From: Schmidtea polychroa
Lineage: Eukaryota
Direction: 5' to 3'
DNA length: 64,000 nt
Assembly: GCA_044892525.1 (NCBI GenBank)
Contig: CM097885.1
Span: 150,660,001-150,724,000, forward strand
In this document: in pieces, positions 9,701 through 48,807 of the stretch
Layout of the letters: each line of letters begins with the position of its first letter
How positions within the stretch are numbered: the first letter of the stretch is position 1
Translations under genes and position numbers: made by a program
Notes under the pieces: generated by a model
Told to the model about the DNA's origin: nothing
Database searches by the model: none
What the model saw: only the letters and a program-made list of their open reading frames with translations

Positions 9701-11839
9701 GTACAAAATTAGCATTTTTAACTGCACACAGATTTTATGGGCTCTATCATAGCAACTGAGACAGAAAAAAAGTACATTTTTCTAAGGAATGGATTTCGTG
9801 TTCCATAACTCCAATTGGAACTAAAAATGATAGTAGACAGGCTTCTCTTCCCCAAAAAATTAAAGAACATTCCTTATCTGACGCACACTTGAAAATTCAG
9901 GATATTATGAAACAGGCAGTGGTGTGCTGGAGGCGGCTATCTCCGGCTCGCGCGAGCCGGTTGTTACGGATTTACCAGCACCCCCGCCCCCCCCTCCTCC
10001 CCCACTGGCTCTATGTATATATCACATATATATATAAATCAGGAAATTTCAGTCGATTAAATAAAATACACTATTATTGGTTTGTTTACGGTTGGATGAT
10101 GGTAACCAGTAGTGGCTAAAGGATGTAGTATATATGCTACTAACGGTGCTACTTCAGTATAAGCTGCAGGATGTTGACAGTGTCAGGGCACATGCTAACT
10201 AGGCATCATCATTACACCTTTGTCACTGACACTGAATTCACCAGGAAGTATGATAAATGATATCGCCATCTTGAAATATATTATGCTTGTCATACTTAAG
10301 GTAGTTTAAGTTACGCATATCACGTATGCAATCAATATCGATTACGTAATTTGTAGCATTTTTGTTTAAAATTTCAAAATTTTGTTTTAATACGATTAAT
10401 AATAGTAATAATAATTCAACAGATACTTTAGAATGTGAAATTATTAAAAATAATTAATCTGTGTTATTAGTTGTTGAATAACGGTCCGTCACAGTCAATA
10501 TGTTAATACTGAATCTCCGTCTATGGCTGATCGCATTCAGTTCATTATTTTTGATAACCATCTTTATTGTCCAGGTTAGCTTTTGTGACTTTGAATTTGT
10601 GATTTCAATAACGCAAAATTTATTTAGCCCCACTCTGATGCACCATGTTCATTGTATGGACTTGTTGGTTATTGCCATGAATCAAAAATATAATTTATTA
10701 TTATTATTTATTTTTTTCCTCTTTTTTTAATACACAAGACCAGAAAAAATCGATAAACAAATAAAATGTTTTATTTAATGATTTAAAATTAATTCTTGTA
10801 ATTTTTCTATTTTTTAAATTATTTTATAAAATTTAAATTTATTTTATTTTAATTTATTTTATTTTATAAAACACATATAATATTACTATATATGTGTTTG
10901 AATAATATATTTTAATTTTTTTATAAGATTATGAAGTTATTTACGGTAATGTAAAATACGAAACTTCAAGGGTACCCAGAACCTATCTTTAACTTTATTA
11001 TTTTATGAAATAATTTTATGTACCCCCAATTTTCTTTATCAATTACCATTGTATATATTTTGAATTGGGATTGTTTGAATGGAGTTTGTAGTGGTGCATT
11101 TCCAGAGTTTGATTGTTTACGCGTAAACAATTCTTGAAGTAAATAATGATGTTGGTGTTAATATATTATTGGGTGGAGTGCGTGCGTGTGTCGGAGAAAT
11201 TGTTAATCCCGCCGAGTCTCCTGTAAAATATGTTTCGGTACAGTTGAGGTGTGTGTGTGTATGTAAATTGTCAAAATTTATGTTTGAGGTTTTATATAAT
11301 GCATAACAAATTTAACGATAAAATTCTATTAAACAAATTTAAAAGTATTAAAAAACATCAGTGTTTAAAATACATCATGCATTAGATCCTCTGGATCACA
11401 TCGTTTTCATTTATTCTGATGTTTTTTCATTTTCAATTTGAGTTCTTTAATTTAATTTTTCTAATATTTATTTTCTATTGATTTCTTTTCCTCATCCTTT
11501 TGTGTAAAGGGGGGGACAGCAATAAAAATTAATAAAAATTACATTACAAAGGATAACAAGAATTGCATTTATTATTATGAGTTTTAACAATAAATAATTG
11601 GTGAAAATTGTTTAATCGACTCATATAAAGGAAGTCTAAATGTTATGACATTGTTATGGTAGAAGTTATTGGCATATAGTACGATTTGATTCGAAACTGT
11701 TGACCCATCTAAAAATTGTCACTGGGCTTTTAAATTCCTTTTTAAAGTGTTATAGGCTCCGTTTTGAGATATGCTCATTCAAAAATAAATCATTTATTTC
11801 AGAAAATGTCTCCATTTGGTATGCGTTACGTAATATTAG

Positions 11840-14800
11840 TGTTGGCGTATGTGGGGGAAAGAAAATATATAGGCATGATTATCATACACATCAGGTGTCA
11901 TTATTCTACTCAGATCATTCCCTCACGCACTCCAAATGATCATTCGCATATTCCCACATATGAGCCCGTGGTGATGTTCCACGTTGGTACTGCTCACACG
12001 GGTTGGAAAGAGTTAGCAGGTGAGCCCCTGCCTTAGGACTACTCCTAACCCTTTCTCGGTTCGGGTTCTACGGTGCCATAGAAGGTCTTACCCATTCTTT
12101 ACGCATCATTCGGTCCGACCCTGGTCCAAAAGGTAAGACATTTAAGTTTCTACTATATTTTCGTGATCCTTCTCTCATGCAATTCAACCGTAGCAAATCA
12201 TACATACAATTTACACAATCAAAGAAAATCGAACAGTTATATTAGAACGGAACATCAAATTACATTCAGCATTGTTTAAACAAATGCAAAACATTAAAGA
12301 TTAGTCACGAGATAACGTCGCTTCTTCAAGTTCGTTCGTAATAGCAGGGGAATCGAGACCCGAGAGAGAATTGGCTACGAGAATGCTTCTCCTTCTGCGA
12401 GCATCTCGTCGATGTCAACGGGCAACCGGCGATCTTCGAGGAATTTGATACTGCCGGCCGGAACTACCCGGAATACTTCCTTTGTAGGAATGGAATGGGA
12501 AACTGTAATTTCCTTGATAGTTGCTTTGGCCACAGATAACGATGCTTCGAGCGCGGCCATGGCATTTCTACGCTTCTGATTTTTTTCAGAACGCGTCAGC
12601 CGCTTACGCTTTCGATGGGGAAATGTAGCTTCTGCTGGGGACTGAAGGAGGTGTGGCACGCGTACTGGAGCCAAGATGGGGTCCGATGGACCGCCAGCCG
12701 TAGGTCGATCGCCCGAAAGAACTGGGGCGGGAATTGGCGGCATTTGTGGGCCATGCCCTTTACAACTGGATATTGATGAGGTTTCAGCTAATTTGTGGTG
12801 TATTGGGAACACGTTAGTCCCATCTTGTATCGGGTACTCGCGAACTCGCTTCGCTAGTTCTGATTCGGAATACACCTTGTGCAGTGCCTCTGATTGGGCC
12901 TTTATGGTTAGCCGCTGGCACCTGCTTTCTTCCAGGAGACTGTCACGGCAGTGCTCCAAACGCAGAATCTTGCTCTTCTCCTCCTTCATTTGTGGTGGGG
13001 AGAACCACGTTCCCTCATAGAGGTCAATTCTCTTCTTCAATTCCCCGATGTACAAGTGGAGCTGTGCGATATCGGCATTTTTATCAGCACAGGAAAAGCA
13101 AGGTCTGAGGGTTTTCCCGGAACTGGTTGAGGTATTCATCTAAATCGTTAAGGAATTGTTATTTTTAAATTAAAAATTTACTGGGGTATTATTCATATTT
13201 TCGGAAAAAGAAATGTAAGATTTCCCCGACCAAGTTATCCAAGAGTGACCTACCAATCTACCCCGTCGGCAATTAACCACCTTCATACAATCTCAAACAT
13301 CCAAACTAACCCATGTAATCATTACTACTTTATGAGAAGAAAACGGGATTCATGAAAACAATTCATTATGCTAGCTTTTAGGTATACTTTTTGGGTTTGA
13401 CTATCTTTAACTGCTGTATGACTGTTACTTCGTTACTATGAACGCTATTATCTTAATTATCGTTATTACCTTTTAACAATTATATTTTACTCATTTTGCT
13501 GCCATGTCGTTAGATTCTACGCGTGCTATATGATGAACGGAAAATCGGCAATTACCGGGACACCCCGTCTTGTATGTAGACCCCTCGGGTTTGTACGAAA
13601 ATCATAATACTCTCACTTAAATTGTTATCATGGATTATAATTTAGTTATTTAAATTTAACGCCATAAACATCGTCATAGTGACGCTTAAATCGGGCGCAG
13701 TTATGTGTTCATTTGCTTGTCTATCTATACCGTCAACTATCGACGGGTTCGTTATGATGCATGTTGGTGCATTTAACTAGCGATTTGCACACCGACAAAA
13801 AAAAAATTTCTCGTCGCATCGCCATGTTCTCTGACGCAATCCAGTGGTCTACTAGCAGATACAAGTTTACGACTCTCTCCCTATGATTAGGTAATGATGA
13901 TATCCACATGTGCACTGTGACCTAATCTGAGTGTGATGCATGTGTACATGTGGGCGAGCGATTAATAGAGGTAGAGTTGTAGAGAGATGCTCTAGTTGAG
14001 ACGGGTACTCAGTTGGTGTGTCCAAAACTCAAGAAATTCGATTGTGTGGGTGACTTGCGGATTCAGTAGATAAAAATTACTCTATATTCTGGATTCTCGA
14101 TATTAGGTCGACTCACGATAAGACCACTCAATACACTTGATCGACTGCCGCCTTCTCAATCAACTCGTTCGATGACTTTATCAAATTATCAGCTGATTTT
14201 CCCCGTCAGAAATTTATCTGGCCATGGGCAACTAATGATTCTCCTATCGCTATTGATATCTTCACTCGGACTCACGGCAAGTGATTTATTTCCTTATCAA
14301 AAAATTTGTTTACTTTCCCCTTTTAGACGAGCCGCTGTCAACGTCAAACCAAACTTTATCAGATATTCAATGTCAAGCTAAAGTCTAAATTAGTAAATGA
14401 ATGGGTTTACTCGCTAATATCCCTGCAATGTACCTCTCGGGGTTCAATTTTTAAGGGCTTAGCAGATCTTCCAGTGAAAACTCTAACAATTCATCGCCCA
14501 TCCCTACTCAGACATCTATCAATATTCGACGGAAAAGCAAATTTTCCTAACAACAACGAACTACTGATCTCAATCCGAAAAATTGTCTCCGACTTTGGAA
14601 AATTTACATTATTTATTCTGAAACTTCAGCGTGACTTCATAAAAGAAAACGAAAGATCCTCTATCAGATCGCGCTCGAGGTGAGAAATTCTACTTCCAAC
14701 AGTATTCCACCTGCGGAGTCTCCTCACCCCTCACGACCCACCCAAGAAGGCAATCATCTCTGCCGCCGTTCTTGCATCGTCGTGAGGGACCGTTTGACTC

Positions 14801-15970
14801 GTCTTTCACAAAATCAACATTTAATATACAATTTATGAATAATAAAATGAATGAATGAATCAAATAGTAGCAAATGAATCAGTAAAAATAAATGGATCAA
14901 TAAAGCTCACCCGGCGACCCTATCATTTGGACTCCAAGTATGATGTTATTCATTCCACACAACCGCAGCCTCATCATAACCTTGGTAGATCTCTCACATG
15001 ATAAATATCCTTCTCTGCAAATGTCACATTTTCATTTTCAGCATCTTCGGGATTTCTTATGAAGGTCAACCTTCCCACTGTTGTGTTCTCTGCCGTGGTA
15101 CATTTCCAACTCATCCACATCATACTGGGAGCTCTCAGATGGTACAGTCGCCGGCACCATGAAGAAAAGGCCATTTGTATTTCAATAAATTTATTTTACG
15201 AAATGAGTTTTGTCTTTCATCATTAATAAATTAACTAATACATATAAATCAATCGGCCTACCGATAGTTTCAAAAACTGGAACGAAATCGAGTTTAAACT
15301 GGTTTCAAATTATTTGAAGGTAACTTCTGAAAATCTCTCGAATTAGCGTTTGCGATTCTAGTCCTGAATTCGGTGAAATATCTGAAGTCTATGCTCTGTA
15401 ATCGTGAAAAATTAAAAGTGGTTGTCGTCTAATTTTTCACGTTACATATATAGTATTTTTCGTCCAATCAGGACGCTACCTGCTTGTATTTTTACTATTT
15501 ATTATTATTTTTCTGTTTTTTATTATAATATATTAGATTTTAATGACTTAACTTATTTCTTATTATTATTTTATTTATTTTCCTATTTTTATTATTTTCC
15601 TCCTATTTTTCTTGTAGGTTTATTGCTACTTTATTGTAATATAATTTTTTTGTTTTAATTAGACTTAAAGATAGTTTTATTTTTTATTTATTTCTTAAAT
15701 TTCTCTTTTATTTGTTGTCACTTTTTTACTTATTTTATTCTATTTCATCTGCTGGGTCCTAACTCGCTTTATTTCTAAATCTCAAGGGGTTTATTGGATT
15801 TTATTTAGTTTGTTTACTTATTCTTATTCTTTTATTGTTATTTTATTGTTCCTTCCTATTTACTAGTGAGATTTCTATGGTACTTTATATTTTTATCTTA
15901 TTTCATTTATTTTTCAAGGATTACTTTTCTATTCGCTCCAGTTTTCGAAACTCCACATTTTAGCCCAACA
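11840..15970 (-). repeat. 3' LTR (4,131 bp)
   Basis: Direct repeat of 38363-42493 with the same length and the same ORF set. One substitution seen (13066 G vs 39589 A). Confidence 0.97.
12375..13139 (-). CDS. LTR-encoded hypothetical protein (254 aa; coiled coil, Pro-rich linker, basic NLS-like segment), 3' LTR copy
   Basis: ATG-started 765-bp ORF, GC-richer than the surrounding LTR. Contains HRKRKRLTRSEKNQKRRN. Confidence 0.6.
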   Translation of the reverse strand: MNTSTSSGKTLRPCFSCADKNADIAQLHLYIGELKKRIDLYEGTWFSPPQMKEEKSKILRLEHCRDSLLEESRCQRLTIKAQSEALHKVYSESELAKRVREYPIQDGTNVFPIHHKLAETSSISSCKGHGPQMPPIPAPVLSGDRPTAGGPSDPILAPVRVPHLLQSPAEATFPHRKRKRLTRSEKNQKRRNAMAALEASLSVAKATIKEITVSHSIPTKEVFRVVPAGSIKFLEDRRLPVDIDEMLAEGEAFS

Positions 15971-16200: not shown

Positions 16201-16566
16201 TCACATGATCTCAAGGTTCGGAATGTTATTACTGTCTTGGTTGGTTGAGTTCTGGGTCGGATGGCTGGTCGAAGTTGTTATCGTGGGGAGCTGGATTGTA
16301 ACAGGCATTTGGTCAGGGGATAGATTTTGTTGCATTTGGTCGGGTGGGTTTGGTTGTTGAAAATGTACTGCTCGTTTATGTTTATTTTTCGATCGTAGGT
16401 TCTTTCTTTCGTGTTTTTCGGATAGTGACTGGTTTCTTCTCCATGTTCGATGAATATCATACGCTTTCCAGATGACTAGTGCGCAGATGATAAGGGTTTC
16501 ACTGATGGTAGTATAGAGTAAGACTTGGCTTTCTTTTACTTCCTTCTTCCTGATGATTTCCTTCAA
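16201..16566 (-). CDS. Small accessory reading frame with one predicted TM helix (no ATG start)
   Basis: TTG-started frame with VLLYTTISETLIICALVIW, followed by a basic segment and a Q/T/N-rich tail. Confidence 0.35.
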   Translation of the reverse strand: MKEIIRKKEVKESQVLLYTTISETLIICALVIWKAYDIHRTWRRNQSLSEKHERKNLRSKNKHKRAVHFQQPNPPDQMQQNLSPDQMPVTIQLPTITTSTSHPTQNSTNQDSNNIPNLEIM

Positions 16567-16837
16567 GGATTGTTGGGTGGTTTGTTCTTGTAAGAGAATT
16601 TCGAGCTGTTCGATTTTTTTGGGTTTGTAGGTGGAGTTGCATTTGAAGTTTTTTCCAGACGACTTTGTTCCAGCATTGTTTCGGGATGTTGTTGGAGAGC
16701 TTTCTCTCGCTTTTTAGTTTGGTTAAAGGGTTTTGCTGTTTCTCGGGATTCTCCCAGAATGTTGGGATTGGCTGCCACATGGGTCTCCCGTTTATCGCTA
16801 TCATCATTATTGTCACCAAGGTTGCTCCGAACCACAT
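16499..16837 (-). CDS. Small accessory ORF with signal-peptide-like N-terminus (112 aa)
   Basis: ATG at 16837, MWFGATLVTIMMIAING hydrophobic leader. Overlaps the next frame (16201-16566). Confidence 0.4.
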   Translation of the reverse strand: MWFGATLVTIMMIAINGRPMWQPIPTFWENPEKQQNPLTKLKSERKLSNNIPKQCWNKVVWKKLQMQLHLQTQKNRTARNSLTRTNHPTILEGNHQEEGSKRKPSLTLYYHQ

Positions 16838-16892
16838 ACTGCTATACGAAAATTTTTATTTACAATTATTTACATTGATCATTCATCTTTAA

Positions 16893-17594
16893 TTATTGCC
16901 GGGTTTTCTTTTTACGGGTTTTCTCGGATGTTCTCATCACTCTCGTTTCTGCTTTTATTACTCGTTTTCTCAATTCGGGTAGTACTTTTAATTGTTTGTC
17001 TCTTTCGTCTAACTGTTGCCTTAGGGTTATTATTTTTTCTTTTAGTGCTTTTATTTCTTGTGTTGCTCTTTCGAGGTTTCTATGGTTCATTATCTGTAGG
17101 AAATCATTTTCCCTTTCCGCGTCTTCTTCGTTGTCTATTTCCTGGTATTTGTTGTTCATTCGTCTCATTATCTCACATTCTTTCTGTTTTTGGTGTAGTT
17201 GGAGTTGTAACTCTTTCAGGCTTTCTTGGTGTTTCCGTGCCTCGGTTTTCCAATAGTCACTAATCACTTCGTCGGCCTTTCGACTGGCCCTCTCCTGCCA
17301 TAATTCTTCCGCGATCTTTTCCCAATTTCTCCCTCGCTTTCTTTGCTCGTGAAGCCATTCGTTTTCTTCCTCTACCTCTTTCTTTACTCCTTCTAACAAG
17401 ATATATTCTCTTTTCAATACTTTAATCATTTTTCGATTATCTCTCCACCTTTCAACTAATCTTTCGTTTTCCTGTCTCTCTTCTTGTAATTCTTCCTTGA
17501 TAGTTTTCTTCCTCTCCACTTCATCAACTTCAATTTCTCCCTCTTCTAACTCGATTATAGATGTTATGCTGGGTTGTCCGTTTTCGGTGTTCAT
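16893..17594 (-). CDS. Accessory coiled-coil protein (233 aa)
   Basis: ATG-started, E/K/R/Q-rich with heptad character. Same strand and codon style as the other element genes. AT-rich spacers on both sides. Confidence 0.75.
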   Translation of the reverse strand: MNTENGQPSITSIIELEEGEIEVDEVERKKTIKEELQEERQENERLVERWRDNRKMIKVLKREYILLEGVKKEVEEENEWLHEQRKRGRNWEKIAEELWQERASRKADEVISDYWKTEARKHQESLKELQLQLHQKQKECEIMRRMNNKYQEIDNEEDAERENDFLQIMNHRNLERATQEIKALKEKIITLRQQLDERDKQLKVLPELRKRVIKAETRVMRTSEKTRKKKTRQ

Positions 17595-17781
17595 TTTCTA
17601 TAATATATACATAATTAATAGCTGCGCTACAGTGCGGCTTATACTTATACATTTATATGTTATTTTATAATCAGGGTTACAGTCCCTTTCATACTTTTAC
17701 TGTACCATTAATTTTTTTTTTTTTTTTTTTTGGTTGGGATACAGGTCCCGATTTTTATATTTTTTATCTTTCCTTTTATCC

Positions 17782-18819
17782 TTATACAAAGGTCTCTTCC
17801 TGGCCTACATATCCCTCATCGCTTTCTACTGACGTTTGTAATTGGAGTGCGATGGGATCAAATGGGATGTAGTACCGGGGAATCTGCGCTCTAAGTTCTT
17901 GCACTTCGTCTCTTAGTGCTCTTGACACGTTAAGTTCCTCGTCCAACAGGTATGTTAGATACCTGGTTTCATCGTCTCTTACCTCTATCTGTTTTTCTAG
18001 CTCTTCCGCTTTTTCGCCGTTTTCCCATTTCTTGATCTCTATCTCCAGATTTTTAAGATTTTCGTTATACATTTTCCTTTCGTTTTCTAACTTTTTGTTT
18101 TTCCCCGCCAGTACCATATTTCTCTGCTCCAGAGCTCCTTGGTATCCGTTGACATCTCGTTCTAGTTCTGCGACCTTATTTACCAGTTCCACGAGTCGTC
18201 CTGACTGTTGAAGTATCAGTTCTTCCATTGCGGCATTCTCGTGCTCCCTTATGGAGATTTTCATGGCTAGATGTCTTTCAAATTCCATGGCTTTGGTCTG
18301 CCATGTTTGGCTTCGGACCGCAATCTTTCTGAGCCGTTTCAGTTCTTCTCTTATGACCAGATTTTCCTCCCATTTGCCTTGTTCGCTTTCGTATTCTAAT
18401 CTCATAGGCAATTCTTTCATTTCTTTTTTCATCTCTTTGTTCTGCCGCTTCCAGTTTCGGGCTTCTGCCAATAGGTGATTCATTTTCCTTCCTTCCTTTT
18501 GTTTTTCTGCTTCTCGTTTTGTGTTTTCGTCCGTCAATCGTTTCCGTGCTTCCTGCACTAATTGTTTTAAATAGTGGCTGTGTGCTTCTTGGCGAGTGTT
18601 TTCCAATGATGCCCACTTAGAGGCTCTTTTGCATGCTTCTGCTTCGGCTCTTAAATTGTTTATTAACCACTGATATTTGTTATTCTCGTATTCCCTGGCC
18701 TCTTCGAGATGGTTGTGGGTCTGGTTCGTCAATTGTAACATTACTTTGACCCATTTTCCCTTATGGATTTTATTGACTTTGGTTTCGTGGTTTGGGGCTT
18801 CAGTTCCTTCTTGTGTCAT
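17782..18819 (-). CDS. Accessory long coiled-coil protein (345 aa)
   Basis: ATG-started, continuous charged heptad repeats, no recognisable catalytic motif. Confidence 0.8.
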   Translation of the reverse strand: MTQEGTEAPNHETKVNKIHKGKWVKVMLQLTNQTHNHLEEAREYENNKYQWLINNLRAEAEACKRASKWASLENTRQEAHSHYLKQLVQEARKRLTDENTKREAEKQKEGRKMNHLLAEARNWKRQNKEMKKEMKELPMRLEYESEQGKWEENLVIREELKRLRKIAVRSQTWQTKAMEFERHLAMKISIREHENAAMEELILQQSGRLVELVNKVAELERDVNGYQGALEQRNMVLAGKNKKLENERKMYNENLKNLEIEIKKWENGEKAEELEKQIEVRDDETRYLTYLLDEELNVSRALRDEVQELRAQIPRYYIPFDPIALQLQTSVESDEGYVGQEETFV

Positions 18820-19038
18820 CCTTGTCTAAATAACGATATCATTAACTTAACGTTGTACGCTTATATCTGGTTTATTATTTATTTATTTTTATAATTCGTT
18901 ATAGGAGTTGTTTTAGGAGTTTTTCGCTTAAGTTTACCTTTGGTAGATTTGGGGGGAATTTTCTACACTACTATATAATATTTTACTGGATATATACGCC
19001 GATATTTACAATTAGTATATACAAAATTATTCGTCTCC

Positions 19039-20427
19039 CTACTCAGTCCTACTCTTCCCATCACGTCTCACCGCTATTTTTATGTATATAGTGTCGTTTC
19101 TCGTCATGTCTTCTACTTTCCGCTGTAGGACGAAATTTGGTGCTCCAGTTGCTGGTCCTTCTTCTTCCAAGGGCCTTTGGTAACATACGAGGTTTCCCGC
19201 TGTATGGAAACTCTGTTCGTGTATACTTTGATAGTTCATCATTGCAAGGTCTATTTTTGCTTTGAATGGCCATTCTATTAACTCGTCGTATGGCCCTTTG
19301 CACATCAAGAAGAATACTGAGAAATGCGTTCCGTATGCACTTCCATCCCCATTGGGGTATGCTTTCATTTTCATTTTATACCCGTTTTTCCCTGAGTAGA
19401 ATGCTGGACTTAGTAATGTTGTATCCTTTCCATTTCTCGCTCTCTGCATCTTCTCTTTTATTCCCGTTATTTTCCATATGTACGGAGCCGTTGGTATTAA
19501 TTCGTTGAGGTTTAATTCGCTTACTTTTTGATGTAGTTCTTTCACCATAATATTGCTAGTTTCTACTAGATCTGTCTGTATCTTTGTACTTGTTCTCGCC
19601 TCTTCAAATGCTTCCTTTTCTTCCAATAGTTCTTTTACCAACGCTTTTAGCGAGACTATTTCTCTTTCTAAGTTTTCGGTTTTCCTTTCGTTTTCCTGTA
19701 ATACCGTTGACCATATTTCCGCGTGTGTTGATACGTTTTCTGCTAGATGTTGGGGTAATTCTCCTCGGTGTAATTGTTTCGGACATCCCCATTTTCCTAG
19801 CACACACGTTATCTTTTTTCTTTCACACTCTTTTAGATGTTGAGCGAGTTTTATTACTCCGGGTTTATCGCATTTGTTGGGGCATTCTCCTCTGAATTCT
19901 GCGCACACTTTCTCCTCTTGTATGTTGTGATGTTGACTGATTAGTTTCTTCCAGGTGTCGTTTTCTCCGCAATACTCGCATTTCTCTATTCTTTCTTCGC
20001 ATCGACTTTGATGTTCTGCTTCTTCATTGACTTTAATCTCTTCTTGGCAACGTTTGCATTGACTGATTTTATACTCACATTGCTCCGTATGTTGCCTCAC
20101 TTCCCATATCACTCCTCGCCAATTACATGGGGTGTTTTTACATCCTAGGTTTGCATTCAACATATCTTTTACAGCTGCTTTATCTTCGTTTGTATCTCCC
20201 AAACTTGTTATCATTGTTTCTTTGCATACTGGGCACCATTGTGGTCCCTTCTTTATTATCTCCTCTACACATTCTCTGCACATTCTGCATCCACATCTGG
20301 TTTGGTGAGGTTCTCTTAATAAGCTCTTGCATATTCCACACGTTACATGGTTGTGTATTCGAATTGTGGTGGACTTTCTAATTTGTTCAACAATTTCTCT
20401 GAATTCTTCTCGTTGTCGCTTATCCAT
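19039..20427 (-). CDS. traf: TRAF-family protein (RING, TRAF zinc fingers, coiled coil, MATH/TRAF-C), intronless, inside the retroelement
   Basis: RING CGICKSLLREPHQTRCGCRMCRECV...CPVC. Repeated CxxC...H...C zinc fingers. MATH domain YIWKITG...SPAFYSGKNGYKMKMKAYPNGDGSAYGTHFSVFFLMCKGPYDELIEWPF. Confidence 0.92.
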   Translation of the reverse strand: MDKRQREEFREIVEQIRKSTTIRIHNHVTCGICKSLLREPHQTRCGCRMCRECVEEIIKKGPQWCPVCKETMITSLGDTNEDKAAVKDMLNANLGCKNTPCNWRGVIWEVRQHTEQCEYKISQCKRCQEEIKVNEEAEHQSRCEERIEKCEYCGENDTWKKLISQHHNIQEEKVCAEFRGECPNKCDKPGVIKLAQHLKECERKKITCVLGKWGCPKQLHRGELPQHLAENVSTHAEIWSTVLQENERKTENLEREIVSLKALVKELLEEKEAFEEARTSTKIQTDLVETSNIMVKELHQKVSELNLNELIPTAPYIWKITGIKEKMQRARNGKDTTLLSPAFYSGKNGYKMKMKAYPNGDGSAYGTHFSVFFLMCKGPYDELIEWPFKAKIDLAMMNYQSIHEQSFHTAGNLVCYQRPLEEEGPATGAPNFVLQRKVEDMTRNDTIYIKIAVRRDGKSRTE

Positions 20428-20516
20428 TTCTATAATTATATATATACATATATTCGTTACCGGTACAGTTTCGTATTTTTATTTACATTTATTTACATTG
20501 CTATTTTAGGTTATAT

Positions 20517-20876
20517 TTATTGGCTGGAAGAGTCGGCCTCTTGTCCGCCCTCTTCCCTGTTGGTTAACCATTCTGACCAGTCTTCTATCTCCTCTCGCTC
20601 CATCTCTTCCGCGATTCTTATTAACTCTTCTTCTTGCACCTGGCTGTATCGTGATATTCGGTCTATCTCTCGCTGCATTTGTTCTATTTTCATTCGTTGG
20701 TCTTCGATTATTCTTACATAATTGAAGCCTTTATTTAAACTTTCGACTAAGCTTCTTTGTACAGCGAGTCCTTGTTCCTGTAAATTCGAAATCACTTGAG
20801 TTAACATTGCACATTGTTGTTTCCACATCTCCTCGGTTGTTGTACTGTGGTTTACTTCCTCGCCTATTCGCTCCAT
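20517..20876 (-). CDS. Accessory coiled-coil protein (~119 aa from first ATG; frame open from TTG at 20900)
   Basis: MERIGEEV... with helical, charged content and an acidic C-terminus. Confidence 0.6.
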   Translation of the reverse strand: MERIGEEVNHSTTTEEMWKQQCAMLTQVISNLQEQGLAVQRSLVESLNKGFNYVRIIEDQRMKIEQMQREIDRISRYSQVQEEELIRIAEEMEREEIEDWSEWLTNREEGGQEADSSSQ

Positions 20877-21044
20877 TCTTAATTTATATATACTTTTCAA
20901 TCCTTATCTAATTTTATTTTTATATTAATTATCCCCATCATTATATACTATTGATACCGCGCTTATATAAAAATATAGAATACTGTTATATAAATAAATA
21001 ATTCCTACTTACTTTTTACAATCTATATACAGTCATAATCCTTT

Positions 21045-24000
21045 CTATATACGTGAGCTTGGAGGGCGCTGAGCATTCCAGGCCTCCACCCACTGTTCCT
21101 GCTTGATATTACTTGGTCGTTTTACACGATGTTGAAAATTTCTTATTCTGGCCATTTCTAGTTCTCCGTGATGCCGTCTATCTTTGATTATTTTTATTGT
21201 CCCCCCCGTTATGATTAAAAAGGCCCCTGTTATTATTATGCCGCTGATCCACATCATCTGTTTTATGCTTATAATTTCCGCTTTTTCCTTGCTCGTTATT
21301 GTTGATATTGTTTCTGTGCTTTTTAGATTACCGTCTTTGCCATTTCCTTTCATCATTCCTCGTATTCTTGCTATTTCCTCGTTCATACCTTCCTTTGCCA
21401 TTTTTTGTATTTTCTCCATCTCCTCCTCGGATACATAATTGTCTTGGTGTTTCTCACTGTTTTTCTTGCGTTTTCCTTGCTCATCTTTTTCATCATCGAT
21501 TTTTCTTTTCTTTCCTCTTTTCCCAGGGTATCGTCGACATTCTCTCGCTGTATCTTTTCTCCAGATGCATATTGTGTATTCTTTTGGAGGTTGTTGCTGT
21601 ATTACATATTGTAGACAGTCTTCACCCGGTCTTAATCTTGCGATGCAGACTTTGTGTTCTTTTCTTGGCTGGAGTTGCGTTATCACTACCTCACCTCCTT
21701 TTCCCAGGTGTACCTCCTTCCCTTTGACTTTCGTTATTCTCTTCCCTTCTCGATTTCGGTATGCTTCTTGTATTCTTACTTCCGTTATTGGTTCTGCATC
21801 TTCATTTTTTAACACTAGTCTCTGATAAGCTCTAGACATACATCTTCCTAATATACACCTTTCTTTTAAATCCCATTCTTCTTTTAGATCCCATTGCTGC
21901 TCTTGTACTTGTTTTTTCTTTTCTTGTTTTAGTTCTTCCTCTTTGTTGTCCTTATTTCCCGTTTCTTTGGCTTCTTTTATCGTTCTCATTCCTCCCTGGG
22001 CTGTTATCATTTCCACCATTGTTAGTACGAGTATCATTATCATCATATTTGTCTCCATTTCTTTGTTGGTAAAAAGTAGGCATACCCTCTGTTTTCCACT
22101 ATTCGTCTTTTCTTCTTGCTTCATTCGGTTTCTCGGGTTATTTTCCTCTTTTTCCCTACTCGCGTCGTTATTTTCTTGATTATTCTCCTCTAATTTCTCT
22201 TTCTCTTTATTCCCGTTTCGACCTTTTTCATTATTATCGTCGTCTTTATCGTCTTTATCGTCTTTATCTCCCCCGCTATCGTTTAAAATGTCGTCCTCGA
22301 CATTTATATCATTCAACAATCTGCGGTATGCCGTTAGCACTCTGTTTCTTGCTAATTTTGCTTCGAGTTCGAACTCCTTTCTGCCTGTTGCTACATGTCT
22401 TTTTCTATTCCATTCTTTCACTAATTCTCTTAATTGTATCCGACGATGTTTCCCGATTCGCTTTTGTTCGTTTAGATTCTGCGTGAATTTGAGATCTTCC
22501 CTGTTTAATACGATCATTATGATTTTCGGAGTTCCTCCTTTTGTTAGTGTATTTTTAACCATAGCATTTTCTCCGTTTTCGTAGAACTCATTTATGTTTA
22601 TTGCATATTTATTGCTTTGTGGTATTCTCCATGTTAGCAGCAACTTCATGGCTTCTAAGTTCATCCGTATCGTGTTCCATTGGAACTGTGACGTGTTTTT
22701 ACAGATATTTTCTACCTCAGTTCTTGTAGCATTTTTACAAATGAATCTAATCATTTCCAAGTTTGGTTGTATTGTTGCCCAATCCATGGTAGAATTTCCT
22801 TCGTTTGATATTTCGTCAAGTCTCGAACCTGATTGATGTAGTATATGTAATGTTTTCGGGTGTATATTTGTTATGGCTGCATACATCATTGCTGTTTCCC
22901 CTTGTTCATTTTTTGCATTAGATTCTTCTCCGAAGTCTCTAAGGATTCTTATGATGGTTATTGCTCTGTTTTCTTTTGCAGCTAAAATGGCTTGTTGTAA
23001 TGGTGTTCTTGAGTCTTTTGTTGGTAAGGTGAATGCTAGTGGTATAAATGTTTTTATTTTTCCTATGTCTAGATTTGTGGTCTGATCTCTTGCGTAGGTG
23101 TGTACTGTCTTGGTTATTTTTGCTAGTATCGCTTCATCGGATAGATCTTGCATTTCTTCAAAGAATACTTCTTTAGCCTTACGTACTACTATCTCTTGGT
23201 CGGAGTTTATTGTCTTTGGTTTACTTGTTGTTGCTATATCGGTTATTGGTTGCTCGACCTGTTCCTCAGACTTTCTTGTTTTTACTTTCTTCATTTTTAT
23301 CTTTTTCTTGTTCGAACTGTTAATGCGTTCCTCTGCCGTTAGAACTTGAATAATACTTAGGTAGTTTTCTCGAATGTTGTTCATAGTTTCCATCATATGT
23401 AAAACACTCACGGTGTCCCAAAATTTTACTTGTACTTTATCGGTAAATTGAGATATAGCTTTTTCGAAGTTGGTAATTCGTTTTCTGATTAGTTGTTCGT
23501 CTTTGTGATTTGAGAATTTTATGCCTCGTTGTAGTAGTTGATTTGGAATTTCGAATAGGTGATGTCCTCTCATTGCTTCTCTCATCAAGGTATTTTCTCC
23601 TTTGGTAAATGTTTCGTTTATATCCACCATATAATCGTTTTTTATCGGGTTCCTCCATGCAATTAGTATTCCAGTAATTGTTGTTAATTTCTCTTTGATT
23701 GCAGTAAATAGCCCGTCATACATGTTTCCTATCTCTCTATTATCCTCGTATGATATTAGATCTACTAAGATTATGAAGGCTTCCGTACTTTTCCCTTCGA
23801 TTGCATGATGTAATGCATTTTTCTGGTTGTGATCTTGTGTGGTTATCTTTGACCCAGTTTCGAGTAATGCGATGATAATATCTTTAGCTTTATCCCGATT
23901 GGCTGCTATCATTAGTGGAGTGTAACCTTGGTTGTTTTCTTGATCTGTCGAAATGTTACAATCGCGAAATGCTTCAATTGTTTCTAATATCTGTTCGTTA

Positions 24001-27000
24001 CTACCCACCTTTAAAAGCTTGTGCAGGGGTGTGTCTCCGTAGTGGTCTGTGATCGTGAATAATATAGGCCATTGACTTTTAACTACCCTGAGCAATGGGT
24101 GTGTTCTTTCTCGGTTTGCATAATTTTCGATCATTGTTAGCAGACCTCCCAATATCTCAAAATCTAATCTGTCTTCTGCCCATCCGGGCATTTTAACTTT
24201 TACTTCCTTTATGATTTTCTCGGCTTCTGATGGTTGTAACCCTAATCGATTACCTGTTGGTTCGTTTATTTGCTGTAACATGTTTATTCTATACGTTTGT
24301 GATCTTGTCGTTAGTGTACGTCCTTCTGGCTGACTGGTGGCGGTTTTCGGAATTGGCTTACATCGTGCAACATTTACATATATTGGCCTTGTAAAAGGGT
24401 TGTTCACTAATCGTACTCTTACATTAGTTTCTCCGACGAATAGAATCTCATACGGCCCTTTACCGTTTCGTTGTAATTTTTTGGTGGTTCCTGGAATTAA
24501 TTCTGGTGTTTCAATCATCACCCAATCGCCTGTTTGAAACGTATGCTGTTTGACGTTTTTCTTTCTATCATGTAACTCTTTGTAACTTTCTTGATAAAAT
24601 TTTATATTCAATCCTGCGGTTTCCCAGATTTCCTGCATTCTTTCCTTGAACTTGGTTACATAATCGTCTATTTCCATGTACTGTGATATCGGTGGCTGAT
24701 ATTCTAAATCCATTGGCATATTGCATTCTCTGCCGTACATCAACTTGAACGGACTCATCTTTGTGGACGCGTGAATCGACATTCTGTAAGCCATGAGGCA
24801 TAATTTTATATATTCATCCCAGTCTCGTTGATGACGATCGACATAATTTGATAACATTTGAATCAGTGTTCCATTGAATCTTTCTGTCATACCATTAGTT
24901 TGTGGATGGTACGGTGATGTTCTTAATTTTGCGATCTTGAAGTAGTTGGTGACTTCGCTCATTATTTCGCTCATGAAATTCGTTCCTTGATCCGTCAGTA
25001 TTTGTTTCGGCGTTCCATATCGACAACATATTTCCTCTACTAATATTTTTGCGATTGTTCTTGCTTTCTGATCTGCCATTGCGAATGCTTCGGGAAATTT
25101 TGTCAAATAATCTGTGATTACCAATATATATATATTTCCTCTATCTGATTCTGGTAGTGGACCGACTACGTCCATTGATATCATCGTCATTGGTTCTGCT
25201 GGCACTGGCATTGGCTTTAATGGTGCCTTCCATTTTGTTCCCGTGTTTTTTCTGGTTGCGCAAGTTATGCAATTTTTCACCCATTCCGTTACATCCTCGG
25301 TCAATGTAGGCCAAAAATATTTTTGTTTCATTCGTGCCAACGTCTTTTTAGATGACATATGTCCTCCGAGTCTTCCGTCATGGTATTGTGTTAGTAGATC
25401 TTTACGTCTATTCTCGGGAATGCACATCAGTCTTTTCTCGCCATCCATTATCAATAACCAATCTTTCTCGATAATATATCGATGTCGATGTTTATCCATA
25501 TGCTCCTTCAATTTTTGATCTTTCTCATATACCTCTGCTTTCCCTGTTTTCACATATTCAATGATTTGCTTCAACTCTGTATCCTCTTGTTGGTCTTTCC
25601 GTAATTGGCAAAAATCTAAATCTTCTGCTACCATCAGACATATTCGTTGCATTTCGTGATCTACTAAATCTGGAAAGATAAATCTGGACATACAATCCGC
25701 ATTGGCATTCGCTCTTCCCGCTTTGAATTTTATGAACGGTGAATATTCTTGTAACTGCATTGCCCATCGCATCAATCTACTTGAAGCTTCTTTGTGTTGA
25801 CCAAGCCATACTAATGGTTGATGATCCGTGGTGATACATATTTCGTGTCCCCATAACAAATATCGAAAGTGTTTAATTGCTTGTATGATTGCTAACGCTT
25901 CTCTCTCGGTTACGGAATAGTTTTTCTCGTGTTTTTTAAACGTTCTACTGTAGTATCCAATCACTCTTTCTTTTCCTTCTTCGTCGAGTTGTCCCAATAT
26001 TGCTCCGGCTGCATATCCACTTGCATCTGTTGCTAATAGGAACGGTTTCTTGAAATCAGGATGTACTAGTATTGGGGCTTCAATTAATTTATCTCGCAAT
26101 GTCTCAAACGCTTTTTGTTGTTCTGCACCCCAAATAAATGGAATATCCTTTTTCACTAATTCCTGTATTGGTTTCGCAATACCTGCATAGTTTTTGATGA
26201 ATTTTCGATAATATCCGCATAATCCGAGAAATTCTTGAACTTGGGTGACAGTTTTTGGTGCTGGACATGTTTTTATTTTTTCTAGGTTTCTTGGATCTGG
26301 TTCTTTGCCTTTTGCTGACACTATGTGTCCTAAGAACGTAACTTTTTCTTTTGCCCAATCACATTTGGATGGTTTAAGTTTCAGTTTCCATTGTCGTAAT
26401 CTAACGAACACATTTCTGATATCTTCCAAATGTTGTTCGAATGTTGCTGAATATATTAATAAATCATCAATATATACCATACACTGCTTGATCCCGTGTG
26501 TGACAAAATTCATACATCTCTGGAATGATGCTGGGGCATTGGTCAGTCCGAACGGCATTTTCCTGAATTGGTATAGATCTCGGCCCAATGTGAATGCTGT
26601 TTTCTCTTTGTCTTCCTCCTTGACTTTGATCTGCCAATATCCGCTTTTCAGATCTAAAGATGTAAAATATGCGGCCCCCTGTAACATAAGTAACATCTCA
26701 TTGATGTCTGGTAACGGGTATGTGTCTCTTTTTGTTACTGCATTTAATTTCCGATAATCGATACAGAATCTCTGAGTACCGTCTTTTTTCTTCACCATGA
26801 CTACTGGAAATTGCCATGGCGAACAACTTGGTTCGATCACTTGTGCATCTAGCATTTTTTGTACTTCGGCTTCGGCTATCTCTTTTTGCTTCTCCGCTAG
26901 TTTGTATGGGCGTAGTGCGATTGGAGTTTCGTCTATTAATGGTATTGCGTGTAATGTAACATCGCATGCTCCCAAATCTAAATCCGAAATTGCGAATATA

Positions 27001-30000
27001 TCTTTATATTCTATCAATAATTGTTGAAGTCTCTCCTTTTCTTTTTCCGTTAGCAAGGTGCTATCAATTATCCATAATTCGTCCGCTTTCGTTGTTTCGT
27101 TGGTGATTTTTGGTAATTCGATGTCTATCATGGGTGTCAATCTACCCAATCTTTCATTTTCATATATGATCTTGTCTTCTTCCTCGAAATTTGTGATGTT
27201 AATTGGTATTTCCCCGTCTTCATTTATTGTTATTATTTCTCTTGCTAATGGTAATTCTCGTCGTTTTTCGAATGATTTGCTTGGCTCAAAAATGACTTCT
27301 CCTTCCATTCCTGCATCCACTTTTATTTGACATATCATCTGTGATTTTGCGGGTACAATTATTTTCTCCGGACATCTAATTATTGCGTTCATCTTGCATA
27401 TTCTACCCATTTTGTCTTTTAGACACATTGTTGTTAAATCGATTACTACCTCCTTAAACAATTCCGGCATTAAATCCGTTCCGATTATACATGGTTCACT
27501 CAGTTTGGGTATCACCGCTAGATACGTTTCAATTTCGTTATCCTGATATCGTAACGTAGTCCACCATCTTCCTACTACGTCTACGGTTTCTTTACTGCAT
27601 GCAATAATATGGATAGTTGTTTGTTCGATATCCTTCCAACATTTACTGGGTATTTGGTTTATTGCTATTGCTGATACGTTTGCTCCGGTATCTATCATGG
27701 CGCTTGTCTCTTTCCCGTTGATTTGGATCATGACTGTTACTGCCGCACCTCCTGGTGAACTCATCACTGCTATCGTTCTTACGTCGTCCGCTTGGTCTAC
27801 ACTTTTCGTTCTTCGGGTCGGCATATAGTTCATTCCTGGTTGACTTGGTAACTGTGGATACATATTTTGTGTCATGGTCAAAGCTGTTTGTTGTCCAACG
27901 ATATCTGGTGGTATGTAACTTCCGTTGGCTATCCAGGTATTTGTTTTTTCTTTCTCCCAATATGGTGCTGTTTCTATTGGCTTTTCATTCGGGTTTCTAC
28001 TTGGATATGGGTATTTGTCATTCCCGTTGTCGTCATCATCACTATCGCTGCTGTTTGATCGATTCCTAAATCTGTCTAAGAATTTTGGTTTGTTCTTTTT
28101 CAGTTGCGTCCTTGTTGCTTCATCATACATCGTTTTCCGAAATCGTCTACCGACTTCCTCGTCAGTTCCTTTTATTTTTGTCAGTATTTTGATCAATCGT
28201 TTTATTCTGTGTATGTCTTTAGAATGACCGTGCAACACCATTGTTTTCGCCAAAAATGGTAGAAAGCCTACTATTAATTTCCAATTTACCTTCTTTTCTC
28301 TCTTATAGATATCAAAACACGCTAACATTTGAGTTAATATTACTCTGACGATCTGAATAATTAAGATGATTCCCAATATTCCTGCCATCATTTGACCGAA
28401 CACTAGAAATCTTCCCCACATTGCTTTCATCATGTTTGACGTGGCTTGTTGAAAATGATCAGGTGACAATAATAGTTCGTAATTGGGGCCTGACTGGAAA
28501 TTCGTTCCCCCAGTTATGGTAACCATATTCGATAGAATGGATTCCCGTCTTGCTGGGAATAATACGTTTAATCGTGCCGTTTCTAAATCCTCCGGTGAGT
28601 ACATACCTGCTTTTGACACATCAATTGGTTTGAAATCTTGTTCTGTTGCAAGTTCTATTAGTCCAAACTTTTTAGGTTCTTGTACTTCGGTTTTTACCGG
28701 TAACATTATCCATTTCCCATCGGGTTTTTCATATAACGGTCCGTATGCATTTGAACAGTTAAAGGTGTTCGGGTAAAATCCAATTGGGTTCATTATTCGA
28801 GTGACGGGTTGAACGAATCTGTTTCGCCCTTTGTAACTAATTTCTAACTCGTTTGCACATTTCCCTGGTGGAATTGTGGGCTTTCTTGGCAGTCGCGCAA
28901 ATGTCTTGGTACATGCATATGTATACATTACCTCTCCCACCATTCTACCAAAATGTCCATCCGGTAACGGGAGTGATGGCATTGTGTTATCTGGGTGTGT
29001 TATTGCGATGGCTAATTTTGTTTTTAGTATCTCTTTATTCAATGAACAGTCATTTTGTATAAGATCGTAATACACTTTTTGCATTGTCGTTTGTCCTCGG
29101 TGAAATAAAAAGTCCATTTTGTTATTGGCGTACAGGTACAATTTTACGTCCTCTGTTGCTACCTTTCCCACTGCTCGGTCTATTACTTGCCTGGACATGT
29201 AGATACCTGCGTAGTTCGTCCGGTATACTATGCTGTCACATTTGGTGGTTTCTTTTTCTCTAATGAATCTCATGCCGATATCTGGGTCATCTGTAATTAA
29301 TGCCGTTGGTGTTTTTTGGGTTGTGAGTCTCTTTTCTTTGGGGGATGGCGGAACTGGTTTCCCATTTCGCATCCTTACGTTTCCATTCTCTTCATCGTCA
29401 TCCTCGTTTTCGTAAATTTCTCCTTTTACTTCATTGAATAGAGCACTTTTTAACAATTGGAGTCGGCATTTTTGGGTGTTAGCTTCATATATTATAGTCG
29501 AAATTCCCGTTCTACACACGTTTTCCGTAGCTCTGCATGCTGGGTTGGTTTTCATTTGATAGTTGTTCGCGTCGAATTGTGCTTCGTATTCCTTCAACTC
29601 CACTGTGTAGGACTCAATTACTACTACTCCCGATATCACCTCTCCTCTGATCGTATATGTGCCTCCGTTACATGATCCATCAGTTGATTTTACTCGTCCA
29701 GCGACATAGATACTTTCTGTCTTGATCATTCCGCTTTGTCCGTGTATTGTTACTCCATCCCTGATTCTCATTGCTCCGGTTCTAAAAAGCTCTTTACAGT
29801 CTTCCCGTTGTATAGGTACTATTTCTTTATCTAATCCCGGTAATATAAGGGTTGAATATGAGTATTGTCCACAGTAATATGCCAACACTTTCTTTGATAC
29901 TACACATTCTCTAGCTTGCGTTCTAATGAAATCTGATTCTTGGTATACGTGATAGGAGACTTTCTTCTTTACTATATCTAATTTATTCGGAGACGCCTGT

Positions 30001-33000
30001 CTACATTCCTCTATATCTCTCAGGGAGTATCTTTCTCCTATTATCGAATTGTCACAGTCGTAAATAGTAAATCCCGCGGCTCCACTGGTGCAGAGCATCC
30101 ATATCATCATGGTCATCATTAGTGAATTAATCGACGCTTTTCTGCTGGCTGGGTCTTTCAATGGCAATTCCCATTCTAGCTCATGTAGTAACTTCTTCAA
30201 CCGAATTTGCATTGATCTCTCTTGCTCGTTTTTTCGTGGCGCTTGTATGAGTCTTTTCCACCCACCGGCGCGGATGATATGTGGTTCGATTGTATTTTCA
30301 ATGATTGTGACGGTCATTTCTACATGATTTGCGAATTGTTTGTTAGGTATTTTCCTTGCTGCTAATCCCATCAAATTGTACATTAGATACGTTAATACTA
30401 CTAAATGATGTTCGTCGTCGTTTGCGTTTAAAGTTAATTGTTCAATTACTCTTCTTGTCTCTTCCCAATCGGTTTTAGTGGTTTTTGTCTTCTCTTTGAT
30501 TAATTTCGGAATTATTCCGGATATTGTATTCCATAGTTGTCTGGCGTCTACGCTTGCTACTTTTCGTTGCCATAACCGTCGCAATTGTGGGTTCGTTATT
30601 ATTAGCATATCTTTTACTAGCTCTCGTATCCATTTTTCGCCTCTTTCGATAGTTGGCTGGGCCTCTTTTAGATCCCACACTATTTTATCCAGTTTCTCTA
30701 ATCTGACTTGTCCTTGTTCTTGTTTCAGTTGTTCTCTAGTTTTAAATTCCGGTTTTTCTCCTTGCTTCTTGGGTCTCCCTTTTGCCCGTTTTTCCATCAT
30801 TGTTCCGGCTTCCCTTGTATTTTCATAATTCGGGTTTCTCTCGTTATCCGTTCTTGGCAATGAGCTATCGTTATTTCTTAGCCATTCGTTCCATTCGTCT
30901 ATTATTTTGTCCGTTTGACCTTCTGGTGTTGCTTTCGTTGGTCCTTTCTGTCGTTGGAATTGTTCGTCGGTTTCGGTTTCTGTTGTATTATCGATAATCT
31001 CCTCGATACTCAGCTTATTTGGCTGCTGATAGCTAGTTGACGGTTGGCTTGTTGTCCATATTTCGGCTCCTGTCGGCCATCTTACCAGAATTGGTGATCT
31101 TTCTCCAGCTCCTTCATCGCTGTCTTCCAATATAATTTCCTCGATTTCCTCGGTTTCATTCGTTTTACTTGCCACTTTGTTAGGGCTTGGTGTACTCAAG
31201 CTACCTTTCGTAGGTTTACTGGATTTGTTCTTCCTTTTAATCGGTTTTCCCAATGTTTCTGCCATTGTCAATACATTGATCTCCCCCAATCTCATGGGTG
31301 TTATTCCGACATCTGCATTATCATCCAACGATTTTCCGAATAGTTGTAGGTGAAATGGAGTTTCGTATGCTAATTTCTTTTTTAACTCTCTGATCTTTGT
31401 TGTTGGATGTACTTCTGTATCCTCAATGCTTTTGTCGGGATACTTGACTCGGATACGATACCTTTCCTGGGTATCTTGTGCCCATTCTTGGTTTCTCCAT
31501 TTCCTAATAATTTGTTCTAGCTGTTCTGGGTACCATTCGTTATATTGTCTGTATTCCTCAATCGCTTTCGCCATTTCTCTTAGATTGTGGATATTCTCTG
31601 ATGTCTTTAGGATGATGTTAGCCAATGCTATTACTTGACGTTTTTGATTTTTTGTTCCCGTTGCTAAGATATCACCTAATTGTTTATATCTTTCCTTCTC
31701 TTCTCGTTCTCGAGCTTCCATCGCTTCTTCGCTATCCATATCGGCATATTCGCGTTCTTTCTTTCTCATCGCATGAATATGTCTGGTTTCCGTTTCACTT
31801 TCTGATGTAACATCCGTTTCGCTTCCGTCGTCCGATGTCGATTCTATTTCGTCCTCTTCGTATTTTGGAGGTTCATCTTCCTCTTCTTCTGATTCACTTT
31901 CTATCTCACTAATGTCTGTTTCCACGAAAATCCCTTTCCTGATTTTCCATTCTTTGTTTTCCGCATTCCACGTCCTTTCCCATGGGGTTCGTCTGCAGGA
32001 TCTCACACTTAGTTTCTTTATTTTTCCTTGAAGCTCTTTTTCTTTTAACCACTGTTGATGAATTTCAATTATCTCTACTGATTTTTGATATAGCGTTTTC
32101 ATCCTGTCTCGTATTTCTTTCTGGTATGTTATATCTCTTGTTCGGAATTCGTCCATGGGCAATATTCTGATGATTTGATGATTATCCCACATTCCCATTT
32201 CGCTTAGCGAGGTGTCGTCTTCGGCCCGTAATATTATTTTATCGTACATCATGACTACGTCATCTATCATCCCGTCGCTACTCTCGCTTCGTACTTTTTC
32301 CGTTATCTCTTGGTTTATCTTGGTTACTAAGTCATCTACCGTACTCTGATTACTCATCTTTATTCGTCGTTTCTCCTCGTTTGGTAACCATATGGTTATT
32401 TCTAATTTCTGCGGTTGCGTTTCTTTCAACCTGCCATATTTGTGGATCAAATTTATGGTTCTCCAATCGCTCATCCTGAGCAATTCTGTATCTCGTAATC
32501 GGCTCATTAGTTCATGCATGTCTGGAGTTCGTCTTGCTATGAGTAAATCCCAGTTATCTTCGACTTGTTCTTGAATTTGTTTGATTAATTTATCTAGATT
32601 TCGTCGCAAGGTGCATTGTTTTATTTGTTCCAGCTTCAGCTTGATGCTAAAATCGTACTCGGCCTTTGCGTCTTTAGCCCATTCGTGAATATTTGCTGGT
32701 TGTTTCTCTTTATACAATTTCAATATTTGAGTTTCTCCTGGCCAGATCAATGCATCTATTAGGTGCATGTCTGGTTTGATTTGTTCTCCTTGATGTTGAT
32801 ACAGATATTCTTTCTTTCTCGAGCTGCCCAAATGTTCTCTTATCCAATCGAAAAGGTCGTCTGTGACTGCATTTTTTATCCATATTCTCTCGAGTCCTTT
32901 ACTCGTTCCGATTTTTATTACATAGCGTGTTGTCTCCGCTTGTTTCATTTTTTCCATATACTTCTTTATTATCACTTTTTCCTCGTTTGGTATTAGGTCT

Positions 33001-35480: not shown

Positions 35481-36145
35481 TCATTCCTTTTTGCCACATT
35501 CAAGCACAGACACCGTTTTAGGGCCTCTGTTATACTTCTCTTCATTTCCCCTCATACGCTTCTTCGCGGAATATAATTTCCCATCAACCCATATTTTTCG
35601 TCGATTTTAAATTATCTATTTGGGGTGGTAACAATTATCTATATAGTCGTATAAATTATCTATAGCTAGCATTTATAATATCGATAGGTCGTTGTCAGTT
35701 ACTGCTTATTACCCCCCATATTTTCTTAATCCTTTTACGCGGTTCCGCTATTTTACTTAATCTTTCATCTCTGTTTCCCCTTATTTGGTTCTACTCTGTA
35801 ACCAAAACAAAATTCGTTTAACCGGTTTAAACCAAAAAAATTCTGTAGAACTTTGTCTACTTATCTGGGATCCCTTTTAATTAATTAATCACCTTCCTCT
35901 TTTACTCATCACTTATTCTTTATTTTCATTATCTCTTTAATTCATTTTCCTTTTCCGTTTCTCTTTCCCACTGAAAAAAAATTTTCATTATTACTTCCCA
36001 CGAGCTCGTTTAATTCTTTCTAAATTCAAATACCATATTTCAAACTCACTTTGCTTCTAGCTAGCTTTAATATTCCATCTCACTAGTAATTTAAATGTTA
36101 TCAACTTGTAGCTTGAATGCTATCTCACTATTACTTTAGGCCTTT

Positions 36146-38337: not shown

Positions 38338-38355
38338 ATCCCGGCTGAGCCCCCA
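38338..38355 (-). other. Primer-binding site, tRNA-Pro type
   Basis: Minus strand reads TGGGGGCTCAGCCGGGAT (18 nt), close to the known tRNA-Pro PBS TGGGGGCTCGTCCGGGAT. It lies 7 nt inside the 5' LTR end. Confidence 0.85.
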
Positions 38356-38362
38356 AAAATCA

Positions 38363-48781: not shown

Positions 48782-48807
48782 ATGATTGAATTTGCGCTTT
48801 TTGATTA

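Follow-up and report, generated by a model that had tools for sequence, protein, structure and literature searches.

A giant Burro-type retroelement with a complete TRAF gene

The window, a stretch of 64,000 nt from Schmidtea polychroa (GenBank assembly GCA_044892525.1, contig CM097885.1, positions 150,660,001–150,724,000 of the forward strand; coordinates below count from its first letter), holds an enveloped Ty3/gypsy retroelement of the Burro type, which spans 30,654 nt on the minus strand (11840–42493). Its 3′ LTR (11840–15970, minus strand) contains an ORF of 254 aa (12375–13139), its 5′ LTR lies at 38363–42493 (minus strand), and the insertion is flanked by the 4-bp target-site duplication TTAG (11836–11839, plus strand; second copy at 42494–42497). 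This insertion is very young, because the two LTRs, each of 4131 nt, differ by a single mismatch and the element retains TG..CA ends next to the 4-bp duplication. Six nucleotides inside the end of the 5′ LTR we observed a primer-binding-site-like stretch (38339–38356), which is presumably similar to a proline tRNA at its 3′ end, and the 5′ leader contains a tandem array of about 80-bp units (36144–36904). Read along the element, all on the minus strand, there follow an upstream accessory ORF of 159 aa with a C-terminal C3HC4 RING of the IAP kind (37406–37885; also found in a Burro1-type element), a 4626-aa gag-env-pol polyprotein (21045–34925), the helical accessory ORF A (119 aa; 20517–20876), the TRAF ORF (19039–20427), the coiled-coil-like ORFs B (345 aa; 17782–18819) and C (233 aa; 16893–17594), ORF D with a hydrophobic N-terminus (112 aa in the window copy; 16499–16837) and the 3′ LTR. 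Family searches gave no assignment for ORF A, which directly precedes the TRAF in all three element families described below; ORF B corresponds by homology to the C-terminal portion of an ORF of 532 aa in the Burro1-type element. In the polyprotein, Pfam searches recovered gag with CCHC knuckles, an in-frame viral fusion glycoprotein (env), protease, RT, RNase H, integrase and ankyrin repeats, together with a Bcl-2-like (E 0.023) and a ubiquitin-like region (E 0.062) ahead of env, both of which fall below the Pfam cut-offs and had no sequence match in PDB; the same searches found the MATH domain to be absent from it. Outside the element, a host T-box gene is split over several exons and frames (187–765, 1851–2228 and 2558–2923), in agreement with the preliminary description, which had noted a neighbouring host gene with introns; it ends some kb before the insertion. 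On the other side, an inverted repeat at 48462–50236, with arms of about 350 nt (85–92%) around 1.1 kb, is probably a non-autonomous DNA transposon.

The TRAF ORF runs through 462 aa without an internal stop, and its domains bear out the preliminary description of a complete intronless TRAF, from RING and zinc fingers through a coiled coil to MATH, located after pol and before the 3′ LTR. Cys/His spacing defines a C4C4-type RING (C30, C33, C45, C47, C50, C53, C65 and C68) and five TRAF-type zinc fingers (aa 96–235), whose ligand sets are mostly conserved across our alignments; a coiled coil (aa 232–304) and a MATH domain (aa 316–453) follow. The MATH domain is recovered by the Pfam profiles MATH_2 (E 2.8e-26) and TRAF-mep_MATH (E 3.8e-26) and the RING by zf-C3HC4 (E 9.5e-5, above the cut-off); zf-TRAF_2 gives a weak match below its cut-off. 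Sequence searches of PDB matched the C-terminal part best to TRAF3, TRAF2, TRAF5 and TRAF1 (E about 1e-29 for TRAF3 and TRAF2 against the MATH domain) and the RING and fingers best to TRAF6, TRAF5 and TRAF2. An AlphaFold model built from a 12-row alignment (mean pLDDT 80.9), used in place of a single-sequence model with a pLDDT of 40.5, shows the RING, the fingers, a 73-residue helix (232–304; pLDDT 84–91 in most blocks) and a beta-rich MATH sandwich; in Foldseek searches with this model TRAF2 and TRAF3 domains rank first. Domain order, zinc ligands and fold are common to the element protein, animal TRAF2/3/5 adaptors and the intronless TRAFs of the host genome. Unlike the animal adaptors, it resides in a mobile element present in hundreds of copies, has a cysteine for a histidine in the RING (as do host TRAFs) and has lost the serine-rich segment of the MATH groove to other residues. 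It is 28–32% identical to host TRAFs; a search for homologues outside the genome returned 17 TRAFs, all distant (23–29%), and a search of representative proteins found nothing above 39% identity and no close outside relative.

Relationship to Burro elements

By published description, the window element is a relative of Burro. It shares with Burro/GYPSM1, as portrayed in PMC6431247 (citing Jurka 2007 and Grohme 2018), a length above 30 kb, long LTRs, a huge gag-env-pol frame with in-frame env, ankyrin repeats and accessory ORFs; its below-cut-off Bcl-2-like and ubiquitin-like regions may correspond to the weak regions of this kind in Burro. Its polyprotein is 57% identical to that of the Burro1-type element over 2770 aa. 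It is not Burro1 itself, because the MATH domain inside the polyprotein and the BIR gene, both features of Burro1/GYPSM1, are absent from it and present in another family of this genome. That Burro1-type element (G000:C1 21.54–21.56 Mb; L082, L083) has, besides the MATH domain in its polyprotein, a separate whole TRAF of 474 aa after pol, directly followed by a gene with BIR and RING. At least 61 scored copies of this 474-aa TRAF score identically, and the Burro1-type family is therefore bursting now.

In the same source, MATH_TRAF_C is reported in Burro1–4 of these planarian gypsy-like LTR elements, and in an accessory ORF, described as upstream, of a Dugesia tigrina element. The text there names a MATH domain only; the window element has a whole TRAF with RING and five fingers downstream of pol. 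In the literature that we searched for LTR elements with a whole TRAF, PMC6431247 alone reports a TRAF domain in such elements, and Grohme 2018 or Lee 2026 may show a full TRAF. The presence of a TRAF domain in Burro is thus already published; the whole architecture, the probable single capture, the selection and the groove change set out below do not appear in the texts found.

The TRAF ORF is conserved across three element families

A genome search returned 92 full-length TRAF matches with 90–100% identity (the best 92 of 1902 candidates), 84 of them without a stop. A sister family, whose TRAF is 68% identical, yielded at least 92 scored copies (91 open), and the Burro1-type family, with a TRAF only 33% identical, at least 90 (all open); the three lists, at least 274 full-length element ORFs, favour the best copies, and their open fraction is accordingly biased upward. 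All 50 of the copies inspected, made up of the 30 top-ranking and the 20 most divergent ones among the 92, sit in element sequence. Among 40 LTR matches, 36 form 18 pairs, and every one of these pairs encloses a full-length TRAF when LTR and TRAF positions are compared by hand. Pairwise comparison of the window copy with each of these 20 most divergent copies gave dN/dS values of 0.08–0.19 for the TRAF and a similar 0.05–0.25 for the 3′ part of pol, these pairs sharing one reference and hence not being independent. Split by domain in five diverged copies, the RING (0.09–0.14) and the MATH domain (0.04–0.12), as well as the fingers and the coiled coil, are each under purifying selection, and all eight RING cysteines are kept in 47 of 50 element copies. 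The preliminary description had set its proposal against two outcomes, absence of the ORF from other copies and neutral decay; the search and the selection estimates go against both. Neutral decay is ruled out by a dN/dS of about 0.1 together with a frame that stays open across families 33% identical. These comparisons make the TRAF a well-supported stable and selected cargo of the element families.

Two observations concern the stretch downstream of the TRAF. For ORF B (17782–18819), dS exceeds 1.2 in every comparison with the 20 diverged copies, as against 0.1–0.5 for the TRAF and pol, a difference suggestive of recombination between subfamilies immediately behind the TRAF. Contigs of three runs join a point at about 16876 to about 20505–20527 through a repeated spacer motif; such a join would remove the TRAF, ORF B and ORF C together, and the contigs may represent element deletion variants or assembly joins.

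Origin of the element TRAFs

In a full-length tree of 56 rows the element TRAFs form one clade (support 97). A mixture-model tree of 26 of those rows also recovers this clade (99/99), nested in a clade of TRAFs from the host genome (98/96) to which the other animal TRAF2/3/5-like proteins do not belong. In the window family, the sister family and the Burro1 type alike, the genes follow in the order pol, ORF A, TRAF. MATH-only trees did not recover the element TRAFs as one clade and are too weak to place either them or the MATH domain of the Burro1 polyprotein (92/72 with the window family); both element TRAF branches are long, and their monophyly rests on the full-length trees and synteny. Since one element clade lies inside the host TRAF radiation and the synteny is shared, a single old capture of a TRAF from the host family, by the common ancestor of the element families, appears likely. 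The base make-up of the gene matches pol (A 0.42, T 0.18) rather than host TRAFs (T 0.27–0.29), which fits long residence in the element. The trees, the presence in other copies and the purifying selection thus agree with the earlier proposal of a captured TRAF2/3/5-like gene. Its intronless state, also put forward at that time as a sign of capture, is real and carries little evidential weight: several host TRAFs outside elements, single-copy genes among them, are intronless too, and the feature is rejected as proof of capture. Among the intronless TRAFs of the host, the one that scores best for MATH (L091:7842–9472) is single-copy, its next match being at 52%; hAT transposase fragments are found some 1.4 kb away from it, a proximity that is probably due to chance.

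The RING is host-like and the MATH groove is diverged

The element RING reads CGCRMC, with C47 in the place of the histidine of most TRAFs, as the preliminary description had read it. The same cysteine occurs in all 5 host intronless TRAFs aligned and in every one of the 21 RING segments tallied from the host, the two sets having one locus in common; among 101 TRAFs from outside this genome, the position is Cys in 15 and His in 74. The replacement had been taken as pointing to a dominant-negative protein, a reading that falls away with a trait found in every host RING examined and a RING under purifying selection, and we accordingly discard it as an inactivating change. All-Cys RINGs of the CNOT4 type can bind zinc and act as ligases, and the element RING with its eight cysteines is host-like and, in the reading preferred below, would be zinc-bound and active.

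The MATH domain presents a different picture. The groove positions, including the segment aligned with TSSSF of TRAF2, are those that we take to grip receptor tails. This segment reads NLVCY in the window element and QIAY in the sister family, as against RSACY, RSTCY or KSPSY in host intronless TRAFs and a host-like RSACY in the MATH domain of the Burro1 polyprotein. Elsewhere in the groove, Y357, D361 and the F432-side residues are kept, and the changes are Arg to Lys355, the serine segment to L413-V414-C415, and Ser to Thr427. By alignment, then, it is the predicted receptor-binding groove, and not the RING, that is the diverged part of the element TRAF. Host TRAFs in tandem arrays also have a changed MATH groove.

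Spacers and putative splice acceptors

The 89-nt spacer before the TRAF start (20428–20516, minus strand) contains a doubled TGTAAATA with overlapping AATAAA, kept in the TRAF spacer of all three families, and, two bases ahead of the ATG, a TAG that all 50 tallied copies share and that we regard as a putative splice acceptor. Across the three families, 12 of the 14 spacers compared have a YAG no more than 8 nt from the ATG, with 2.9 expected from shuffles; the spacers, being related, are not independent, the second, homology-matched ATG was used for two sister-family ORFs, and the count omits two spacers whose first ATG is without an AG (12 of 16 with them). For the window element alone the figure is 4 of 5 (P 0.008). 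Each accessory ORF there has an AG at most 8 nt from its ATG (spacers 16838–16892, 17595–17781, 18820–19038, 20428–20516 and 20877–21044), and these spacers carry AATAAA and doubled TGTAAATA or TATAAGC motifs, giving the region the look of an operon or of a set of splice acceptors. Because the TRAF lies more than 14 kb downstream of the gag start, we propose that it would be translated from a short spliced mRNA by way of the AG just before its ATG. Spliced-leader trans-splicing is known in flatworms, and either this or cis-splicing from the LTR leader would fit the acceptor pattern. No RNA run was found for the accessory region among the matches listed. One run, presumed to be RNA, gave contigs across the whole region at 85–90% identity; they cover the spacers too, and the run is therefore not distinguishable from DNA. 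Among the matches listed, there was no splice joint or leader at the TRAF start, and these RNA comparisons speak neither for nor against expression.

Host TRAF arrays and the element TRAFs

The TRAF family of Schmidtea mediterranea is reported in PMC6109357 to be expanded, with 121 MATH domains in 99 transcripts, and the preliminary description had suggested that elements like this one could help to explain such an expansion. In the S. polychroa genome, among 150 scored matches to the MATH domain, the best cluster in tandem on one chromosome and element-type frames dominate lower down. We observed dense tandem arrays of split host TRAF genes at G000:C2 about 1–5 Mb and 105–124 Mb, with a RING, few fingers and a changed MATH groove; these are likely to be the body of the reported planarian expansion. 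That element-borne TRAFs seeded this host family is, in our judgement, very improbable. The suggestion can draw on the at least 274 full-length element ORFs, which could inflate domain counts, and on topology tests in which a sister relation between the array clade and the element TRAFs is compatible with the data (AU p 0.40) and nesting of the arrays with the Burro1-type TRAF is borderline (AU p 0.053). Against it, nesting with the window-element family is rejected (AU p 0.005), the arrays form a clade of their own (100/100 in the mixture-model tree) on one chromosome, and their genes are split between RING and MATH at 18 of 19 loci (the remaining one is an intronless gene of the host). Moreover, neither the 30 best MATH matches nor the 21 host loci read over 10 kb have genes of the element beside them; 4 of these 21 loci have retroelement fragments (29–40% identical) nearby. 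Most likely, the elements multiply the genomic copies of TRAF and the host arrays expanded on their own; of the earlier suggestion, the compatible sister relation is what stands.

Proposed role and its alternatives

We think the chances about even that the product is an active TRAF adaptor or ligase with a changed choice of partners, carried as part of the survival cargo of the element. In this scenario it would act as a zinc-bound RING adaptor or ubiquitin ligase. TRAFs form trimers through the coiled coil and MATH domain, and the element protein would presumably do so as well; its MATH groove would bind a changed set of partners, a step proposed because the TSSSF-aligned segment reads NLVCY. 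It would act together with other cell-death cargo, namely the Bcl-2-like region, the IAP-type RING gene and the BIR-RING gene that directly follows the TRAF in the Burro1-type element; this last adjacency recalls, by analogy, the TRAF2-cIAP pairing. The outcome would be a shift of stress and immune signalling in the host that helps to keep alive the cell where the element is being copied. A BIR-RING region of Burro1 reportedly shields stem cells from apoptosis (Lee et al. 2026, Dev Cell, as cited in PMC13465017), planarian TRAFs are tied to innate signalling (PMC7958881) and Burro1 RNA rises on loss of PIWI (PMC8532177). It counts against the survival reading that the window element is without a BIR gene and that its own Bcl-2-like match is below the Pfam cut-off.

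Purifying selection implies that the element TRAF is used, and does not tell which use. It makes a neutral passenger, that is, a recently captured retrocopy carried without use, next to inconceivable: the window copy is indeed young, with its single LTR mismatch, but the dN/dS is about 0.1 and the frame has been kept open between families only 33% identical. The changed groove would fit a decoy as well as a re-targeted adaptor. As a decoy or dominant-negative, the element TRAF would join host trimers or take up their partners without signalling and thereby damp innate and death signalling, for which a receptor-gripping segment unlike that of TRAF2 and of host intronless TRAFs, and a copy number far above that of single-copy host genes, would be well suited. 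Classic dominant-negative TRAFs, however, lack the RING, whereas here both RING and zinc fingers are under purifying selection; the His-to-Cys change on which this idea originally rested is common to host TRAFs, and the array TRAFs of the host have a changed groove too. We hold it to be rather unlikely. The constant company of ORF A and the coiled-coil ORFs, likewise under purifying selection, the env gene and ubiquitin-like regions of the element, and a groove that has moved away from the host form would also suit a role inside the element, in which the TRAF binds and ubiquitinates Gag, the Env tail or the coiled-coil proteins for the routing, assembly or release of particles, with little effect on host signalling. 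The element nonetheless keeps the whole signalling architecture with five zinc fingers, the neighbouring cargo in the Burro1 type is a cell-death regulator, and the partner binding called for is hypothetical; such an internal role is in our view unlikely.

Implications

As described in PMC13465017, B-IAP of Burro1 is likewise a host-derived RING regulator of cell death that serves as a Burro accessory gene, and it has functional support; the role of the element TRAF is a proposal from sequence. A bolder form of the adaptor-or-ligase reading, which we entertain as possible but doubtful, is that a whole TRAF captured once, together with an IAP, an IAP-type RING and a Bcl-2-like domain, would amount to a transplanted, self-contained death-receptor signalling module. 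Each accessory gene would be expressed by splicing to an acceptor of its own, and the TRAF, with a re-tuned groove, would rewire planarian innate-immune and survival signalling from hundreds of copies. Were this so, the element TRAF would join B-IAP as the second retroelement gene in the service of the host, and would be a complete TRAF carried by a virus-like genome, of which we found none described in the literature searched. In planarian genomics, TRAF and MATH counts and short-read expression values can be inflated by the hundreds of element copies, and the real host TRAF expansion sits in separate tandem arrays. Within the Burro elements, a whole TRAF under selection since the common ancestor of the families is the next candidate beside the known cell-death cargo.
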